Below, piece after piece: positions 51,609-60,442 of a stretch of DNA of 64,000 nt. Source of the stretch: Candidatus Hydrogenedentota bacterium (GTDB lineage: Bacteria; Hydrogenedentota; Hydrogenedentia; Hydrogenedentales; SLHB01); NCBI GenBank assembly GCA_045863295.1, contig BTWA01000018.1:50170-114169 (forward strand). Reading direction: 5' to 3'. Each line of letters begins with the position of its first letter. The first letter of the stretch is position 1. The notes beneath the pieces are model-generated. The model was not told the DNA's origin, did no database searches, and was given only the letters and a program-made list of their open reading frames with translations. Both the position numbers and the translations under genes were made by a program.

Positions 51609-52871
51609 ATGGCCCGCTGGTTCGACTGGAAGAGAAAAGAACGAAAACCCGTTTTCTCGCCCGTCGCGGAAACGTTCACCGAAAGCGAGTCCCGCTCACG
51701 AACCATTTCCTACGCCGAGGACGAGGCTGTCTGGCGCCAAAACATGGCCGGTCTGGTCCCTCTGCCCAATCAGACGCCCTTCTTCATGCTCCCTGTATAC
51801 CGCTTCCTTCGAGACTCTATCCCCGATATCTCGGACGCCGTATGGACATGGAAAAGGCTATGCCAAACCGGGTACGACATCGAAATCCTAAATGCCTCGT
51901 CCGATTTGGCGCACGAAAGGGCCGCGCGCCTGTTGCGCGACTTGGACAAGCGGGTCAACACCGGCGACCGGGGGATGGACGGCCTGTTGGACGTGTTCTA
52001 CACGTCACTGTTTACTTACGGCGCCGCGGCACTGGAGGTCGTGCTGTCGTCCAGCCGCGAGTCAATTCACGACGTGGTGCCTGTAGACGTGTGGACCGTC
52101 CGGTTCAAACGCGAAGAAGGCGTCCTGCAACCGTATCAGGTGCATGAAGGCGTGGAAATCCGTCTGCCCAAGGAACGATTTATCTATATCGGCCTCGATC
52201 GCGACGGCACCAACCCATACGGCCGCTCGATGCTCCGGTGCATTCCGTTCATGGTAAAGATACAACAGCGTTTGATCGAAGACATGGCCAAGGCCACCCG
52301 CAACGCGGGCTGGAGCAAGCTCCATGTGAGCTATACACCGGAAGAGCGCAACCGTGGCGAATCCGCCGAGGCGCATGAGAACCGGATCGCTCACAACTTC
52401 GCGGACCTCCGGGATAGGCTCCGCCGCATCGAGAGCGATCAGAATCTGGTCACCTACGACAACGTGGCGGTCAACCTCATTCGCGGCGATCAACACGCGC
52501 AAGTCTTTTACGACAATCACAAGGCCATCGAGGAACAGGTAATCACGGGCATGCACCTCATGCCCATCCTGCTGGGCAGGAACTACGGCACTACCGAAAC
52601 CTACGGCACCGCGCAATTTGAAATCATTAACCGCCAGGTGGAGGCCGTTAACCGAAGCGTCAAGCGCATCCTTGAGCGACTCTACAACTTCGAACTCGCC
52701 CTCATGTGGGGCGAAGCGGAAGCGCGGGTGAACATGCGCTCCAACCGCACCGTCGACGTGCTCAAGGAAGCGCAAGCACGAGGTCTGGAAATCGATAACG
52801 CCCTTCGACTGCGCGACGAAGGAGTTCTCAATCATGCCGGCGCTGCAAAACTCCTAGGCTTCGAAGTATAG
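51609..52871 (+). CDS. Phage-type portal protein
   Basis: 420 aa. LFTYGAAALEVV, NPYGRS, PILLG...TTETYG..Q pattern typical of portals. First gene of a head module. Confidence 0.8.
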   Translation: MARWFDWKRKERKPVFSPVAETFTESESRSRTISYAEDEAVWRQNMAGLVPLPNQTPFFMLPVYRFLRDSIPDISDAVWTWKRLCQTGYDIEILNASSDLAHERAARLLRDLDKRVNTGDRGMDGLLDVFYTSLFTYGAAALEVVLSSSRESIHDVVPVDVWTVRFKREEGVLQPYQVHEGVEIRLPKERFIYIGLDRDGTNPYGRSMLRCIPFMVKIQQRLIEDMAKATRNAGWSKLHVSYTPEERNRGESAEAHENRIAHNFADLRDRLRRIESDQNLVTYDNVAVNLIRGDQHAQVFYDNHKAIEEQVITGMHLMPILLGRNYGTTETYGTAQFEIINRQVEAVNRSVKRILERLYNFELALMWGEAEARVNMRSNRTVDVLKEAQARGLEIDNALRLRDEGVLNHAGAAKLLGFEV

Positions 52872-52914: not shown

Positions 52915-53598
52915 ATGGAACTGGCTCCATTCACGTTTCAACACGAAGGCCGTTTGGTCGGATTCCGGGCACAACCGGGAGACGAATCGGCCCTGGCTCA
53001 AGTCAATCGATTCGCGCTGCGCCCTCTGCTGGCCAGCGAAGTGGCCGTATTTACGCTCGACTTGTGCCACAACCAGATAGACCGGCACCACAGCCGGTTT
53101 CCCGAGGAAGAACTCGCGAAAATCAACGCACTCGTCGTGGGCCGGCCGCTTATGGAACGGCACGACCTGCGCGGCTCGTTGCCGCGCGGCACCTTCTTTC
53201 GCTCCGCTTTGAATCAATCCGGTGAACGAATTTCGGTGCGCCCCGATGTATATGTGCTCCGTACCCGGGACAACGAGGATTTCATTCTCAACATTGAAGG
53301 CGGCGTGTATCGGGAAACGTCCATTGGGTTTTCGTTTCGCACCCCCGAATGCTCGATCTGCAAAAAAGATCTTCGCACCTGCGACCACATTCCGGGCAGA
53401 ACCTACGGCGAGGCGGCATGCCACTACGTGATGCGCGACGTTTTGGATGTGATCGAGGGTTCCGTCGTGCCGTCCGGCTCCCAGGGCACGGGATTCGTGG
53501 CACAGGCGCGGTCGTTGCCCGCGGCCTTGAAGACCGCCCGGGAGCAATTCCACAAACCCGTGGAACTTTTCTCGCAACGCCTCTGGGCGGAGGAGTAA
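52915..53598 (+). CDS. Putative prohead maturation protease with Cys/His cluster
   Basis: IDRHHSRF, ERHD (His), ETSIGF (Ser), EGSVV...Q, as in HK97/herpes-fold proteases. Insert CSIC...CDH...C. Located between portal and capsid. Confidence 0.7.
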   Translation: MELAPFTFQHEGRLVGFRAQPGDESALAQVNRFALRPLLASEVAVFTLDLCHNQIDRHHSRFPEEELAKINALVVGRPLMERHDLRGSLPRGTFFRSALNQSGERISVRPDVYVLRTRDNEDFILNIEGGVYRETSIGFSFRTPECSICKKDLRTCDHIPGRTYGEAACHYVMRDVLDVIEGSVVPSGSQGTGFVAQARSLPAALKTAREQFHKPVELFSQRLWAEE

Positions 53599-53602
53599 CG
53601 AC

Positions 53603-53791
53603 ATGGAAGATCGTGAACGCTGCGCCTGTGGCGCCATTTATGACGTGAAAGTGGACAACCTCAAGGATGATCTGCGCGATCTGAAAGATCGAGTGCAACG
53701 CGTGGAAACAACCCTCGCGCGTGGAGTCATGCTGCTGGTGGCCAACCTCACCGGAATGGTGATCTCACTGGCACAGCAAGTGTTCGGCTGA
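53603..53791 (+). CDS. Small coiled-coil protein with C-terminal TM helix
   Basis: GGAGGAG RBS. Heptads VDNLKDDLRDLKDRVQRVE, then hydrophobic GVMLLVANLTGMVISLA. Confidence 0.7.
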   Translation: MEDRERCACGAIYDVKVDNLKDDLRDLKDRVQRVETTLARGVMLLVANLTGMVISLAQQVFG

Positions 53792-53864
53792 TCATTACCC
53801 TTATCGAATCCAACAAGTGCGCCCTATCCATGCCAAGACTCGAATCACAGGAGAACCGAAAACC

Positions 53865-54560
53865 ATGTTCTGGCAACTGACGCTCGATTCCGCCGAATCG
53901 CAAACTCACTCCAGCCCCCCGGACGGCCGCTACGTGCTGCACAGACACTGTGATGATCGCGGTCCCCATCTTGACCTGCGCCTCGAACAAAACGGGTACC
54001 TCACCGGCTGGCGTATCGAAGGAACGAAGTTGGAAGGATCCCCTTGGGCCATCGAGAAGCGCCCCCATCCACTTCGCTGGCTGGAACAGGACGGGAACGC
54101 AGAACGCCTCGATTGCGGCGAGTATGCCTGGCTCGAACAGAGCAACGATCGCCGCGTTGTGGTGATCCGGGGCCGGCATGGCTGTCGCGTAGTCCAGGCC
54201 GATCGCGCGCCCTCACTGCCACTGCACACAGTCCGGGCGGTGGTGGACATCCTCCGCGAATACAACGCTCCCATGGACGATGCCGCAAGGCTGATTCGAG
54301 ACGGCGTCACTGCCCGAAGTCGCGCCATCGCCCGCTTATGCGGGCTCGGACGGGAACTGGAAGGCGACCACTTCGACGAGGCGATATGGCGCAAGGCACT
54401 CAACGGACTGACCTTGGATGAAGTGCACCAGCAATTGCGCAGCTTCGAAAGACGCTTCGACACAGCCTTTCCCCCTACACCGGTTACGCGCCCCGAACGG
54501 CTCGATGCCGAATCCGTGGAACGGGTCGCCGGCGCCATGAGCATCGCAAGAAGCGTCTAG
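53865..54560 (+). CDS. LigD 3'-phosphoesterase-like domain fused to a helical scaffold-like region
   Basis: YVLHRH...HLDLRLE...GW...HPL...LDCGEY mirrors LigD PE FVVQKH...HYDFRLE...SW...HPLDY...WDRGTY. Charged helical C-half. AGGAGA RBS. Confidence 0.65.
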   Translation: MFWQLTLDSAESQTHSSPPDGRYVLHRHCDDRGPHLDLRLEQNGYLTGWRIEGTKLEGSPWAIEKRPHPLRWLEQDGNAERLDCGEYAWLEQSNDRRVVVIRGRHGCRVVQADRAPSLPLHTVRAVVDILREYNAPMDDAARLIRDGVTARSRAIARLCGLGRELEGDHFDEAIWRKALNGLTLDEVHQQLRSFERRFDTAFPPTPVTRPERLDAESVERVAGAMSIARSV

Positions 54561-54736: not shown

Positions 54737-55117
54737 ATGGCATTTGGTGATATCGGCGGGGCGGTGACCGAACTGGTCATCACCTGCAAAACGCCGGCAA
54801 GCGGCACGGTAGCCATCGCGAAAGGCGACGCCGTAAAGCTCGACGGCGACTACCTCGTGGACAACGCAACGGACGCGGAAGACGCAGTTTTCGGCCAAGC
54901 CCTGGCCGCCTCGGAACGCAACGCGGAGGCAATTCCCGTGAAAGTGCGGGGCATCTGTGTGTTCGCCTACACGGGAACGGCTCCCACGGCAGACGGCGTG
55001 CAGGGCATCGTCGCGTCCGCTACAGACGGCAAGGTGAAAGCTCCCGCTTCCGGTAACGGACGCGGCATTAACGTGAAGGTGGACGCGGCGCAAACGCTTG
55101 TCCACGTTCTGCTGTAA
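54737..55117 (+). CDS. Putative head decoration/cement protein
   Basis: 126 aa, Gly/Ala/Val/Thr-rich beta-type (IAKGDAVKL, VFGQA, DGKVKA). GAGGAG RBS. Immediately precedes the capsid gene. Confidence 0.65.
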   Translation: MAFGDIGGAVTELVITCKTPASGTVAIAKGDAVKLDGDYLVDNATDAEDAVFGQALAASERNAEAIPVKVRGICVFAYTGTAPTADGVQGIVASATDGKVKAPASGNGRGINVKVDAAQTLVHVLL

Positions 55118-55131
55118 GGAGACAGCCCATC

Positions 55132-56178
55132 ATGACATTTCGAAACGATTGTATGAAAGAACGCGTGGCGTTTCTGAGCCGCGACCCCGAACAACTCCGG
55201 CAATCCCGCGGCCTCGAATTGTATGAGACGCTTGGCGCGCTGGGCCTGTCGCACCAGCAGTACTTCCGCGCGCTCGGCACCAACGCCGAGGATTATTGCG
55301 CGCAAGAGTTCGGCATCGACCTGCAACGCATCACCGTGGACAGGTTTTTCCAATCCGATCCCAACGCGAAGTGGCTCTTTCCGGACATCGTCCGCGAAGC
55401 GGTGCTCACCGGGATGAAGCGCAAGCCCGCCTACCCCGAACTCATCATCCGCGACGAAGCCATCGAAGGTACGGCCTACAACGTGCCGTACGTCGAAGAA
55501 TCCGAGGCGGAAGAGGAACTGCGTGGCGTGGCCGAAGGCGCTGCCATTCCCGAATCCGCCATTACCTATGGCGACCGCATCGTGCGCCTCGACAAGAAAG
55601 GCCGCGGCGTTATCGCGTCCTACGAAGTCATTCGCCGCATGTCCGTGGACATGTTGCGCGTCCATCTGATGCGCATGGGCGAGCGCCTCGGCAGGCACCT
55701 CGACGCGCGCCTGGCCACCGTGCTGGCCTCCGGCGACGGCTCCGGCAGCACCGCGCCAACCGTTCTCAATACGGCCACCGCCGCCACCTGGACCTATGCC
55801 GACATTCTCAAAGGCTTCATGAAGCTGTCGTTGGAAAAGTACTTCACGCCGACGCACATGATCGCCAACGCGGACCTGGCCCAGACCATTCTCAAAATGA
55901 GCGAATTCTCCGAAGCCGCTCTATTCGATTTCGCGAAAACGGGCAATCTGCCCACCCCGTTGGGCGTGAAGCTGGTGCCCATGGCCGATCAACCCGCAAA
56001 CAAACTCACCATTCTCGACGCGGGCCATGCCGTGCAGAAACTGACCGAGCAGGACCTGCTCGTCGAAAGCGACAAACTCATCCATCAGCAATGGGACCGC
56101 ACGTATCTGACGGTCGTGACCGACTTCGCGATCATCTACAACGATGCGCGCATCGTCGTGAACAGCGATTGGTCGTAA
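55132..56178 (+). CDS. Phage-type major capsid protein (HK97-fold-like)
   Basis: 348 aa. LFPDIV, VAEGAAIPES...VRLDKKGR...SYEVIRR (E-loop/P-domain pattern), spine helix LMRMGERLGRHLD. TAAGGAG RBS. Confidence 0.85.
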   Translation: MTFRNDCMKERVAFLSRDPEQLRQSRGLELYETLGALGLSHQQYFRALGTNAEDYCAQEFGIDLQRITVDRFFQSDPNAKWLFPDIVREAVLTGMKRKPAYPELIIRDEAIEGTAYNVPYVEESEAEEELRGVAEGAAIPESAITYGDRIVRLDKKGRGVIASYEVIRRMSVDMLRVHLMRMGERLGRHLDARLATVLASGDGSGSTAPTVLNTATAATWTYADILKGFMKLSLEKYFTPTHMIANADLAQTILKMSEFSEAALFDFAKTGNLPTPLGVKLVPMADQPANKLTILDAGHAVQKLTEQDLLVESDKLIHQQWDRTYLTVVTDFAIIYNDARIVVNSDWS

Positions 56179-56233: not shown

Positions 56234-56650
56234 ATGGCCGTATTCACCAACGAGACCGCGGTGCGAGTTAAGTTCCAACTCGCGGACACCACATTGGTAA
56301 CCCCTGCGCTTATCGAACAAAGCATCGAAGACGCCCACGCCGAAGTGCTTCGCTTTCTGGCTCCCGAAGTTGATACCGAGTCCCCGGAAGACGCGCTGGT
56401 CGTAGGCGAGACTCTGCTCGCCGGCGCCCATGTATACCGCTCCCTCGCCGCGCACGACGCCGCGAACCAGAAGCACATAGCGATCGGCGCCAACCGCATC
56501 GAGGCCGGCAAGCGTTTCGAGGCGTTGAATGCCATTGCCGAAGTTGTCGAACGTCAGGCCTGGTACATACTCGAGCCCTACGTGGCCCACATCCCCGCGC
56601 GCTCCGCCATTGCGTTAACGGAATCCACACCCGTGATGGGAGAAGCATGA
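56234..56650 (+). CDS. Putative head-tail adaptor/connector
   Basis: 138 aa helical. FTNETAVR...IEQSIEDAHAEV...ILEPYV pattern. Directly after the capsid gene. AAGGAGG RBS. Confidence 0.6.
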   Translation: MAVFTNETAVRVKFQLADTTLVTPALIEQSIEDAHAEVLRFLAPEVDTESPEDALVVGETLLAGAHVYRSLAAHDAANQKHIAIGANRIEAGKRFEALNAIAEVVERQAWYILEPYVAHIPARSAIALTESTPVMGEA

Positions 56651-56651
56651 C

Positions 56652-57338
56652 ATGGCCATCACGCTCGGCAACGTCACATTCGACCACGCGCATACGGCAG
56701 CCCTCGAATCGCACGACGAAGTCGGAGGCCGCGACGGCCGGCGCATTCGGATCTCGGGTCTCATTCTGGGGCAACCCTCGCTGACCGCCATACACGAACA
56801 ACTGGATGCGATTCTGGATGCCGCCTCCGCCGATGAATACAACGCAGCCCTCTCGCTGCGCCCAGGCCGCCGCATGTGGGTGCGGCGCGAGGAATTCGAA
56901 CGTGCCGTGGCCAACGACGCGCTTGTCGGCTCCTTTCAACTCGTGCTTGAGGCAAAGGACCCACACGAAGAATCGGTGGCCGAAATAGCATTGAACTGGA
57001 CGATTGACGCATCCGGAGACACCTTGAGCGTCACAGCCATGGGCAACGTGTTTTCGGAACCCCGGATAACACTCACCGCCGTGGGCGACCTCGTCAATCC
57101 CGCGCTATCGGACGGTACGCGCCAGATCGCCTATAGCGGCACTGCACTCGCCGGTTCGGTATTGGTCTTCGACGGACCAGCCAAGTCCGTTCGCCTGAAC
57201 GGCGACGACGTCACACCCTATGCCACAGGCGAATTCCCCACAATCGCTCCCGAAGGCACCGTATTGACATTTTTCGACGACACTGCAAGCGCGCACCAAG
57301 CCCAGGCCGTAGTCGCCTTCCGGGACCGGTGGTGGTGA
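56652..57338 (+). CDS. Distal-tail (Dit)-like protein
   Basis: FQLVLEAKDPH, GNVFSEPRITL, GSVLVFDG...VRLNG...GEFPTIAP, and a terminal FRDRWW, typical of siphophage Dit proteins. Confidence 0.65.
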   Translation: MAITLGNVTFDHAHTAALESHDEVGGRDGRRIRISGLILGQPSLTAIHEQLDAILDAASADEYNAALSLRPGRRMWVRREEFERAVANDALVGSFQLVLEAKDPHEESVAEIALNWTIDASGDTLSVTAMGNVFSEPRITLTAVGDLVNPALSDGTRQIAYSGTALAGSVLVFDGPAKSVRLNGDDVTPYATGEFPTIAPEGTVLTFFDDTASAHQAQAVVAFRDRWW

Positions 57339-57340
57339 CC

Positions 57341-59080
57341 ATGCAATACCGAATCGAAATTTGGGATATCTGGAATCGCCGTATCGCTTCCCTCGAAGAC
57401 GTACCGCTTGTAGAAGCCACCCGAACGCTGCCCGGCAAGGCCGACACAATCCGCGGCGTGCTCCCCGATTCCCTGACGCAACTGGGGCACGGATACCGCG
57501 TGAAAGTCATTGTGGACGGCCAGCTCTTCTGCGAAGGTGTTGTGGACTCGGTGGAGCCGGGCTGGGGCGACACACGAAAACTCATCCTCGATCAATACGT
57601 GCCCTTTCACAAGGTCATCGCATTCGAGGCAAAGTCCGAACCCCGCCCGGGCAACTCCCGCATTGCGATGGCATTTGAAAACCGCCCTGTTCACGAAATG
57701 GTGAGGGCCATAGTCAACGCCGCGCCCGGAGCGATTCACTACACCGTGGCTCATCAGGCCTATCCCGATGGCGCGGTCCGCGAATTCGCGAAATTCGAAT
57801 CGCGCAAATCACCGGAAAACGAATTGGGCGTCGGCTCAATCGACACCGGCCAATGGGTAGGTTCAGGCCGAATGGACCTGTCGGCTGCATTCGCCAAAGA
57901 CGGCGACACGATCGCAGGCATTGTCGTCGACGGCGCTCCATGGCCCGATCTCCGGTTGATGCTGATCGATTGCGAAGAAACAAGCCTGAACAGCCATGCC
58001 GTAAGCAGACACCCCGAAACCGAATTCTGGACATCCGGCGAGTACAACGCGAGCGGATACAAATACAAAGCCGACGCCGCAAAGGCAGCCCTGCAGGACC
58101 TCATCAACACGAACGGAATCGACTATATCGAACTGAATCCACATCGCGACACCGAGGGAAATTTCGACGATCGCATCGACGCATTCGGACGCTACATCGG
58201 CCTTGTATACGGCGGCGGACAATGCCTGAATGCGGCTATGGTCGAGCTGGGCCATGCCGACGTGTACCTCTACCAGGATGGCAAGTTTCACGTGCCCGAA
58301 ATGGCGCTCAAGGATTTCTACTCCTACGCCGCACCGGCTCAAGACTCCGTGGAGGAAACCTCCGCCTCCCTCGTAAGCTACGACATCGCAGCCGGTGCAT
58401 TGGAAGCATTGACGGCGCTGGCCTACGCCGCCGGCGGATACATCTGGTCCGTGGGGCTGGACCTGGCCGTAACCTTCCGGAAGGCAACCGTCGCGGATAC
58501 CGTGGTTCACTTTGACCCCGTAGAGATGAGCGTAACGCTCGGCTCCGGCGATAGCGGCGTTGTAAACGCCGTCTTCTTCGAAGGAAATCCCGTGAATGCC
58601 CCGCTCGCAAAAACCTACGTGCGCAGCGCCAGCGTAAACGCGCTGGGATTCCGAAGCCGCTCACTGGAGTACGGCGCACTGCGCGTCGAAGCAGACGCCG
58701 ACCAACTCGTCTCCGGCATATTGGACGACACCGCATACCCGGTCGTAACCGGCGAAGTCTCGTTCCATCACGGCCATCCCGGTATCCACGCCGGCGATCT
58801 GATGGCCTTTCGCGGCGAACCGTTTCGCAGGCTGAGCCCCGCTCTCGACCACGAATGGAACAACGCATTCCCCGGCACATTAATCGCCCGCGCCGCGGAA
58901 GTCCGCCACAGGTTCTCCGGCCGCGTCGTAAACACGCGCGTGTTCCTGACATCCCCGTTGCGCTCCGTGAACGCGCCCATTGAATTCATGGTCCGCACGC
59001 AACCGCCGCTCGCCACCTTTTTTGAATTCCGTCTCGACAACGCCGTGGTCGGCCTGGACATGGGCTACCACCTGGACTGA
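57341..59080 (+). CDS. Baseplate hub/Tal-like protein
   Basis: Follows Dit. N-terminal IEIWD...RIASL, LFCEGVV; ALEALTALA...WSV; VVNAVFFEG; IHAGDLM, as in hub folds. Confidence 0.55.
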   Translation: MQYRIEIWDIWNRRIASLEDVPLVEATRTLPGKADTIRGVLPDSLTQLGHGYRVKVIVDGQLFCEGVVDSVEPGWGDTRKLILDQYVPFHKVIAFEAKSEPRPGNSRIAMAFENRPVHEMVRAIVNAAPGAIHYTVAHQAYPDGAVREFAKFESRKSPENELGVGSIDTGQWVGSGRMDLSAAFAKDGDTIAGIVVDGAPWPDLRLMLIDCEETSLNSHAVSRHPETEFWTSGEYNASGYKYKADAAKAALQDLINTNGIDYIELNPHRDTEGNFDDRIDAFGRYIGLVYGGGQCLNAAMVELGHADVYLYQDGKFHVPEMALKDFYSYAAPAQDSVEETSASLVSYDIAAGALEALTALAYAAGGYIWSVGLDLAVTFRKATVADTVVHFDPVEMSVTLGSGDSGVVNAVFFEGNPVNAPLAKTYVRSASVNALGFRSRSLEYGALRVEADADQLVSGILDDTAYPVVTGEVSFHHGHPGIHAGDLMAFRGEPFRRLSPALDHEWNNAFPGTLIARAAEVRHRFSGRVVNTRVFLTSPLRSVNAPIEFMVRTQPPLATFFEFRLDNAVVGLDMGYHLD

Positions 59081-59088
59081 GGAAAATC

Positions 59089-59610
59089 ATGGCTATCAAA
59101 GGACAGGGATACGTAAAAACCACATGGGCCTTCGAAGAACGCCCCGTGGCGTCTTCCAAACTGAACACATGGGACGACCGAATCGAAGCCGCCCTGGAAC
59201 TCGCATTCCATCTGTTGAATCACGCATGGGGCGGAGATTCCGGCGTGCTGCGCAACGCAACAGCGGACGACCTGCGAGTCCACGCGACCACCCCGGAAAG
59301 CGTCCGCGTGCGAGTAGAACCCGGATACGCCTTCATTTCGAAATGCCCATTCCGGATGACCGGACCCGCCGAAACCGGCGATCTCGCCCCGCCCGCGGCC
59401 CAACCCCGGATCGATCTCGTTCAAGCGAGGCTCGACACCTGGTCCGTCCAAGTGCTCACCGGCGTCGAATCCGCCACCCCGTCTCCGCCTGTCGCGGGCA
59501 CGGACTGCATCGCACTCGCGCAAATCTACCTGCGCCCCGGAATGACCACCATCAAAGACGCCGACGACAGCGTCAACGGATACATCACCGATGTCAGAAC
59601 ATTCTTATAA
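59089..59610 (+). CDS. Baseplate/fibre-associated minor structural protein
   Basis: LRVHAT...VRVEPGYAFI, PRIDLVQARLD, IALAQIY, ITDVR pattern of phage minor tail proteins. Confidence 0.55.
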   Translation: MAIKGQGYVKTTWAFEERPVASSKLNTWDDRIEAALELAFHLLNHAWGGDSGVLRNATADDLRVHATTPESVRVRVEPGYAFISKCPFRMTGPAETGDLAPPAAQPRIDLVQARLDTWSVQVLTGVESATPSPPVAGTDCIALAQIYLRPGMTTIKDADDSVNGYITDVRTFL

Positions 59611-60058
59611 CGGACGAAACGACCTCCGCCTCGTCGCCGAGGTCGACGGCGAAAAACTCACCCACTTCCGGTTGAAAGAATTCGAAAACCGCCAAGGCCT
59701 CGCCATGGTCCATCGCACCGCTTTGGAATCCCTCGAAAGGGTCCGCCGTGAACTGCGCGCCATGGCCGGCGAAGACGTATGGATCATCGTCACCGACGCC
59801 GTCCGCACCCCCGAAGACCTGGACCGCCTCGCCGAGCGGCTCGGCTGGGCCGATCAAGGCGGGCTCGTCTCCCGCCGCTCCAAACACCTCGCCGAATTCG
59901 GCGGCATCGCCGTCGATATCGTCGCCGTGATCGCAAGCAACCGCGCCCGAGTCCCCCAGAAGACCCTCGGAAACGTGTGCCGATCCCATTTCGATTTCGT
60001 GAAAGACGACTACAAAGACGGTCACGTACACGCGGACAACCGCGAACGCGGCCGATGA
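59591..60058 (+). CDS. Peptidase M15-like endolysin
   Basis: HFRLKEF, LERVR, VTDAVRT, SKH...GIAVDI, HVHAD give the M15/LAS zinc ligands H-x-D...HxH. Confidence 0.75.
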   Translation: MSEHSYNGRNDLRLVAEVDGEKLTHFRLKEFENRQGLAMVHRTALESLERVRRELRAMAGEDVWIIVTDAVRTPEDLDRLAERLGWADQGGLVSRRSKHLAEFGGIAVDIVAVIASNRARVPQKTLGNVCRSHFDFVKDDYKDGHVHADNRERGR

Positions 60059-60082: not shown

Positions 60083-60442
60083 ATGGACTGGATAAACAAC
60101 GAAGCAGGCCTCGTCATGCTCAGCACCATCATCAGCGGACTATGGGCCTTCTTCAAATCGCAGGAATGGCTCCGGCTCGCAAAAGAACACAAGGGAGAAA
60201 AGGCGCTCCTGGCACTCGAAGCCGGCGTGCACCACGCCTACGAAGAATACGTGCGCGCCATCAAAGCCGCAAGAACCGACGGCAAACTCACCCCCGAAGA
60301 ACGCCGCCGCGCACGCGATCTCGCCGTGCATGCCGCCGTCGAATTCGGCCGAAATGAAGGCGTCGATGTCATGACAGAACTCGGCGTCTCCTACATCGAC
60401 GCCTGGCTTAAACGCCTCCTCCAACAAATAAAAACACACTGA
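60083..60442 (+). CDS. Putative holin-like membrane protein
   Basis: Single N-terminal TM, then AGVHHAYEEYV...GKLTPEE...IDAWL (LL-H-holin-like layout). Adjacent to the endolysin. GGGAG RBS. Confidence 0.55.
   Translation: MDWINNEAGLVMLSTIISGLWAFFKSQEWLRLAKEHKGEKALLALEAGVHHAYEEYVRAIKAARTDGKLTPEERRRARDLAVHAAVEFGRNEGVDVMTELGVSYIDAWLKRLLQQIKTH

Follow-up and report, generated by a model that had tools for sequence, protein, structure and literature searches.

The window analyzed here, a stretch of 64,000 nucleotides from contig BTWA01000018.1 of a Candidatus Hydrogenedentota bacterium (assembly GCA_045863295.1), carries a cluster of phage-like head genes. One of them, called here the PE-scaffold gene, encodes a phosphoesterase (PE) domain of the LigD type joined to a helical half (the C-half) that probably is a capsid scaffold. 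The features of the cluster are the following:

51609..52871, + strand: portal protein (PHROG 3753, E 7e-49; Pfam Portal_Mu)
52915..53598, + strand: prohead protease without a scaffold tail (phrog_16951, an unnamed family, E 1.9e-36)
53603..53791, + strand: conserved 62-amino-acid ORF with a coiled coil and a hydrophobic helix, lost along with the PE in fused forms
53849..53853, + strand: Shine-Dalgarno-like AGGAG ahead of ATG 53865
53865..54560, + strand: PE-scaffold gene, a real gene encoding 231 amino acids
53922..54215, + strand: LigD-type PE barrel (residues 20-117)
54216..54557, + strand: helical scaffold-like C-half (residues 118-231)
54737..55117, + strand: head decoration-like protein (phrog_4588, E 5e-10; phrog_122, E 0.007)
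55132..56178, + strand: major capsid protein (phrog_3922, E 4e-51; Pfam Phage_capsid_4)
56234..56650, + strand: probable head-tail adaptor, conserved and assigned by position only; no family match
56652..57338, + strand: distal-tail (Dit)-like protein (SPP1_Dit, E 8.5e-6; phrog_33)
57338..59080, + strand: baseplate-hub-like protein with a staphylococcal-nuclease-like insert (SNase, E 6e-4; GpP-like, E 0.12)
59089..59610, + strand: small virion structural protein of 173 amino acids (several PHROG structural families, E 2e-5 to 4e-3)
59591..60058, + strand: endolysin-like protein (phrog_894, weak, E 0.0016)
60083..60442, + strand: holin-like membrane protein, the conserved last gene, assigned by position and a hydrophobic N-terminus; no significant family match

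Upstream of the cluster lie host genes for NAD synthase and two DinB-family genes. Translation of the PE-scaffold gene starts at ATG 53865, 11 nucleotides behind the AGGAG; 43 of the 45 orthologs in which that start was located have a Shine-Dalgarno-like motif ahead of the corresponding ATG, and 116 of 120 homologs retain Met1. An alternative start at GTG 53817 was rejected in favor of this ATG, and a promoter scan found no promoter. The motifs quoted in the initial annotation (YVLHRH, HLDLRLE, GW, HPLRW and LDCGEY) are all present in the protein. Its two spaced histidines are real but are separated by six residues rather than five, and AFPPTPVTRP, given as the end of the helical region, is present but followed by 21 further residues of the protein. 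The gene occupies the slot assigned to it, between the protease and the decoration and capsid genes, with the 62-amino-acid ORF also intervening after the protease. The gene order is fixed: of 69 loci, 64 have the protease upstream and 63 the decoration gene downstream, and among metagenome loci the counts are 30/30 and 54/58 testable. The protease is short, as had been noted (227 amino acids); it has a tblastn match annotated 'major head and protease protein', and we take as its catalytic dyad a His and a Ser that do not vary in alignment A2. An ordinary HK97-like phage (L086) has a protease 65% identical to this product, and its tail, portal and capsid are unrelated.

Structural modeling confirms the predicted LigD 3'-phosphoesterase fold of residues 20-117, in agreement with the domain claim of the initial annotation. 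Pfam LigD_N matches the single protein weakly, below the cut-off (E 0.01); a family profile built from 120 homologs matches the archaeal PE structures PDB 3p43 (E 1.7e-7) and 3p4h (E 7.4e-6). When the AlphaFold model (pLDDT 93.8) was compared by Foldseek, a check that had been proposed, PE structures took all of the first seven places. VIA superposes the model on 3p4h with a Z score of 12.1 (rmsd 2.0 Å over 97 residues) and on 3n9b with 10.3, the next match scoring 6.7. A Foldseek search of viral structures returned nothing at E 0.001 or better.

The metal triad of the LigD PE superfamily (His42, His48 and Asp50) is present as H28, H35 and D37, and its phosphate ligands (Arg52 and His84) as R39 and H68. 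In the profile alignment these five residues correspond to His9, His15, Asp17, Arg19 and His51 of CkoPE, each described as essential (PMC3082917). H28, D37, R39 and H68 occur in 120/120 homologs and H35 in 119/120. Within a taxonomically spread sample of 73 genomes, the PE is intact in 65, degenerate in two, cut by a contig end in one and lost from five; the five essential residues, said earlier to appear kept, are intact in 65 of the 67 sampled genomes holding the domain. Pooled over 15 sister pairs, including one (G128/G130) with a shifted domain boundary and two that are saturated, dN/dS is 0.18 for the PE core, 0.22 for the C-half and 0.10 for the capsid protein. By these values, both halves of the gene are under purifying selection.

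The rim of the active site has changed. W72 replaces the active-site Tyr (Tyr88) in 120/120 homologs, and the alignment of these homologs contains no conserved N-terminal peptide (N-peptide); both differences had been pointed out from the single sequence. E41, G48, R50 and K65 are invariant, and the fixed changes at the rim comprise Trp for Tyr, Gly for Ser, and the invariant R50 and K65. The proteins PaePE (3n9b), CkoPE (3p4h) and MbaPE (3p43) share the barrel, the metal triad and the phosphate Arg/His with the Hydrogenedentota PE, which differs from LigD PEs in its Trp for Tyr, its lack of a Glu82 equivalent and its invariant R50 and K65, as well as in its fusion to a scaffold, its place in a head module and a host mostly devoid of Ku and ATP-dependent ligase. 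A sizeable set of small PE-fold proteins that stand alone (P0178-P0267) carries Met where the essential Arg52 would be, a hint of a further altered PE subfamily.

Removal of a 3'-phosphate by PE requires the N-peptide and shows a stronger dependence on the Tyr (PMC3082917), and Glu82 is also required (PMC8656161). The minimal archaeal PEs, like the Hydrogenedentota PE, have no N-peptide; they mostly leave the 3'-phosphate product, as does CkoPE in particular (PMC3082917). All three determinants are missing from the PE-scaffold family, position 66 (the Glu82 equivalent) being variable and not Glu among the residues listed. Because the N-peptide and the Glu82 and Tyr88 equivalents are missing, the expected activity is that of a 3'-phosphodiesterase, or else a changed chemistry. 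Classical 3'-phosphatase activity of the PE is improbable unless R50, K65 and W72, all invariant, stand in for the lost determinants, and the 'end-healing' role worded in the initial annotation is doubtful. Terminases normally leave 3'-OH ends, for which healing is unnecessary. The 'NHEJ' label does not hold either: no Ku, LigD or ATP-dependent ligase was found in the source genome (96% complete), and of 135 Hydrogenedentota genomes, 4 have Ku and 11 an ATP-dependent ligase. Membership in bacterial NHEJ (Ku plus LigD) was rejected, neither Ku nor ATP-dependent ligase having been found in the protein's own genome.

The C-half is wholly helical in the model, with a C-terminal helix (residues 215-229) loosely tethered, and is as conserved as the enzyme half in both the homolog alignment and dN/dS. 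The proposal of a scaffold-like tail is supported by natural fusions of the protease to the C-half and by a weak, specific alignment to phage protease tails. In five genomes (G003-G006 and G076) the PE and the 62-amino-acid gene are deleted, and the protease and C-half form one ORF of about 350 amino acids. The database contains nine protease-C-half fusion proteins, the fused forms measuring 327-358 amino acids. On a tree of four head proteins covering 70 of the 73 genomes (G008, G032 and G094 were dropped for gaps), fused forms occupy two separate positions, each beside unfused relatives; the fusion is thus derived and arose at least twice. No longer protein containing the C-half was found among 1190 candidates of 406-2000 amino acids, a range above that of the fusions. 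The single-sequence fold of a fused protein has a pLDDT of 35.6.

Phage lambda (C/Nu3) and phage Mu (I/Z) have a protease-scaffold layout, and tailed phages sharing the protease and capsid families of this cluster bear a tail on the protease. The proposed comparison of the C-half with the C-terminus of protease-scaffold homologs did give an alignment, to the tails of Bacillus-phage proteases, but a weak one (pairwise E 1.7e-4 over 68 columns, HH probability 49.5%). Against the same tails, E was 0.76 for the reversed profile, 0.61 for the N-half and 0.15-0.72 for eight unrelated profiles. Tails of a gut family gave E 0.017, which a broader profile brought to 0.001; of three single tails compared with shuffled sequences, one (MT835508) did not outscore them. 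Reverse HMM searches over 832 ORFs were not significant, with the PE-scaffold family still providing six of the nine best matches. These phage tails are presumably scaffolds themselves. Nested scaffolds have an in-frame ATG start behind a purine-rich tract, and such an ATG opens five of the seven phage tails inspected. In the ESM Atlas the nearest named family to the C-half is Mu-like_Pro, a lead only at 0.87, under the 0.9 bar; a PDB structure search returned generic helical bundles only, and complex prediction for the capsid protein with the C-half scored 0.01, which carries no weight either way.

The protease-scaffold of Bacillus phage CUBc25 (XRA41832; phrog_16951) stands in the same order, followed by decoration and capsid genes, and its protease and capsid are homologous to those of Hydrogenedentota, the C-half aligning with its tail. 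Unlike in the phage, the probable scaffold of Hydrogenedentota has a gene apart from the protease, with an enzyme at its head, and the protease fusion reappears only in derived lineages. The C-half (residues 118-231) is, on these comparisons, probably a capsid scaffold, through which the PE would be loaded into the procapsid.

The PE-scaffold family is present in 118/135 Hydrogenedentota genomes (79/86 of those of high quality), with no stops reported. It is essentially single-copy, three extra weak matches being PE-like stretches elsewhere. Named homologs are mostly from Candidatus Hydrogenedentota, and a search of IMG/VR found one locus. The major capsid protein occurs in 114/135 genomes and the nuclease-bearing hub in 90/135. 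Cluster flanks vary between loci and, as judged by ORF clustering only, share no mobility gene; no replication or integration genes were seen in the cluster. In the head-gene tree, families f2, f3, f7, f8 and f13 are each monophyletic, unlike f1, f10 and f11; the host tree in this comparison of vertical inheritance consisted of family labels only. Vertically inherited, selected head genes without replication or integration genes are what is expected of a GTA. By comparative genomics the cluster is a domesticated, GTA-like, phylum-wide element and not an ordinary mobile prophage; this domestication had been missed in the initial annotation.

A large-terminase-like gene unlinked to the cluster (C2:99473-101131; phrog_2, E 9e-24) has matches in 122/135 genomes and lies within about 13 kb on the cluster's contig in five (G034, G063, G083, G096 and G118). 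Thus, the system is not terminase-less at the genome level. No small terminase was identified. Solitary among host genes, the C2 gene lies beside that for RNase HII, and a second such copy (C23:22329-23816) has a weak small-terminase match in an ORF nearby. No tail tube or tape measure gene was found in the cluster, and the two families searched in the source genome, PF10145 and PF06199, were not found there. The hub varies by family, having been found in 0/10 genomes of f8, 0/2 of f13 and 4/23 of f3. In the f8, f13 and most f3 loci read, the capsid or adaptor gene runs almost straight into the lysis genes.

Like GTAs of the RcGTA type and FpGTA, the cluster is chromosomal, near-ubiquitous in its clade and split over loci. 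The FpGTA of Faecalibacterium forms particles without a visible tail; its capsid, according to the supplement, is of the N4-gp56 family and its protease of the Prp type (PMC12946183). As these belong to other families, FpGTA is an analog only, and homology to it was rejected. No PE cargo is seen in the passages of PMC12946183, whereas the Hydrogenedentota cluster encodes a PE. Several gut contigs filed as phage, L082 (MT835508), L083 (MT835952), L089, L095 and L098, carry a homologous terminase-portal-protease/scaffold-capsid cluster, flanked in L082 and L083 by ORFs that, read by eye, are host-like (electron-transport, RNA polymerase and ribosomal-protein-like). Gut Firmicutes may thus have a further GTA-like cluster, distinct from FpGTA.

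Outside the family, Lys and Trp occur together in 9/99 PE domains, all from multi-domain or tandem-PE proteins, and these nine group with the Hydrogenedentota PE domains (SH-aLRT 79-88, 118 columns). Relatives of these proteins were found on 52 IMG/VR contigs; a ligase-like (ATP-ligase) domain is present in 47/52 of the loci and a capsid gene within 8 kb downstream in 20/38 testable ones, the capsid and ligase profiles having been partly trained on the loci that they scored. PE, ligase and an XkdF prohead protease form one chain in 2 of 12 loci scanned. In the head modules of these uncultured viruses (L301-L352), an ATP-ligase is accompanied by two or three Trp-type PE domains; in many copies, Gln or Glu takes the position of His84. 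These modules share the K-x-x-x-P-x-x-W signature with the Hydrogenedentota PE, which, in contrast, is single, without a ligase, host-owned and has kept the His84 equivalent. With modest support from the sequences, viral head-module PEs appear to be its nearest relatives. The likely history is that of a viral head-module ligase-plus-PE kit from which the host retained one PE on its scaffold.

The most plausible reading, somewhat more likely than not, is that a true scaffold brings an active PE into the procapsid. The gene would be the capsid scaffold of a domesticated GTA-like particle, with a passenger enzyme at its N-terminus. The scaffold of the phage ancestor would have been the tail of the protease gene; the protease would later have split off, and a PE domain of the viral Trp-type subfamily would have taken its place. 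Comparison shows the PE fold, the intact metal and phosphate site and selection on both halves, and very likely the C-half co-assembles inside the procapsid. The neighboring protease might then cut the scaffold, leaving the compact PE barrel in the head with the DNA, a step given slightly less than an even chance. More tentatively, the PE could be an Mn-type 3'-phosphodiesterase that trims the ends of host DNA packaged by the unlinked terminase, either in the head or after delivery. The PE is dispensable in some lineages, having been deleted in 5/73 genomes and being degenerate in 2/73. A bolder form of this proposal, unlikely as it stands, is that the phylum keeps a tube-less domesticated particle in which the scaffold serves as an enzyme loading tag; the Trp-type PE would be viral capsid cargo with its own chemistry (R50/K65/W72), delivered with packaged host DNA, whose ends it would prepare in the recipient with no help from ligase or Ku.

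Scaffolds normally exit the mature head, and this usual expulsion favors the main rival, which overlaps the preferred reading as far as the procapsid step: the scaffold would be true, but the PE would leave at maturation and act in the producer, or at the procapsid during packaging, and never be delivered. The PE is intact in 7/8, 2/2 and 11/11 sampled genomes of f8, f13 and f3, whose clusters lack or mostly lack the tail-tip hub, so those particles may not inject anything. A cytoplasmic role, however, would not require the fusion that is maintained phylum-wide, and the related viral PEs too lie in or beside head genes. The chance of confinement to the producer is clearly below even.

A lower probability attaches to a capsid-borne counter-defense or nucleotide-processing enzyme acting on something other than DNA ends, for example cyclic-phosphate RNA ends or nucleotide signals. 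The fixed changes at the active-site rim fit such a role, as does the absence of the repair partners Ku and ligase from most genomes, and effector enzymes of other families are known to be packaged in heads (PMC5512222). In the fusions described there, as here, an enzyme is joined to or lies beside head-assembly proteins; the term 'LigD' is absent from the text of PMC5512222. Slow, conserved evolution is unlike an arms race, and the ligase domains adjoining most viral relatives (47/52 loci) point to polynucleotide ends, which makes this alternative unlikely.

It is improbable that the barrel is non-catalytic, binding nucleic acid or metal, or that the whole cluster is a decaying prophage: the domain is lost or decayed in 7/73 genomes, but the five essential residues persist in 65/67 domains, dN/dS is about 0.2, and one intact copy is present in 118/135 genomes. 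Staphylococcal-type nucleases leave 3'-phosphate ends, and both a PE and a nuclease-like domain are encoded in this cluster, but a cut-and-heal pair in which the PE, as a true 3'-phosphatase, heals the ends left by the hub insert is very improbable and was rejected, since the monoesterase determinants are missing and the domains are uncoupled both ways, with the PE intact where no hub was found and the hub present in all five PE-less genomes.

The fusion of a PE-fold enzyme with a probable scaffold, within a GTA-like cluster found across the phylum, is real and well supported by these comparisons, its function being predicted. A literature search covering titles and abstract openings, with most subscription papers outside its reach, found no description of the PE-scaffold protein, of the Hydrogenedentota cluster or of viral head modules with Trp-type PE and ligase. 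If the preferred reading, scaffold-borne loading of an active PE, is true, a GTA-like particle brings its own nucleic-acid-end enzyme, and the scaffold offers a natural route for loading enzymes into a capsid. The protein is also small and well folded, and suited to probing the roles of PEs outside NHEJ; the role of stand-alone PEs was left as an open question in PMC3082917. The Trp-type subfamily connects a host-owned particle system with many uncultured viruses bearing ligase and PE head modules.

Between the protease and the 62-amino-acid gene there is often an inserted fibre-like ORF, variable and with a hydrophobic helix at its N-terminus (L001:7732-9420 and 14 other loci). The source genome has relatives of this ORF elsewhere (G000:C2:147134-148057 and C13:336-617). 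A different prophage-like region of the same genome (G000:C15:93800-108000), with a capsid of phrog_267, contains relatives of both the 173-amino-acid structural gene and the fibre-like ORF.
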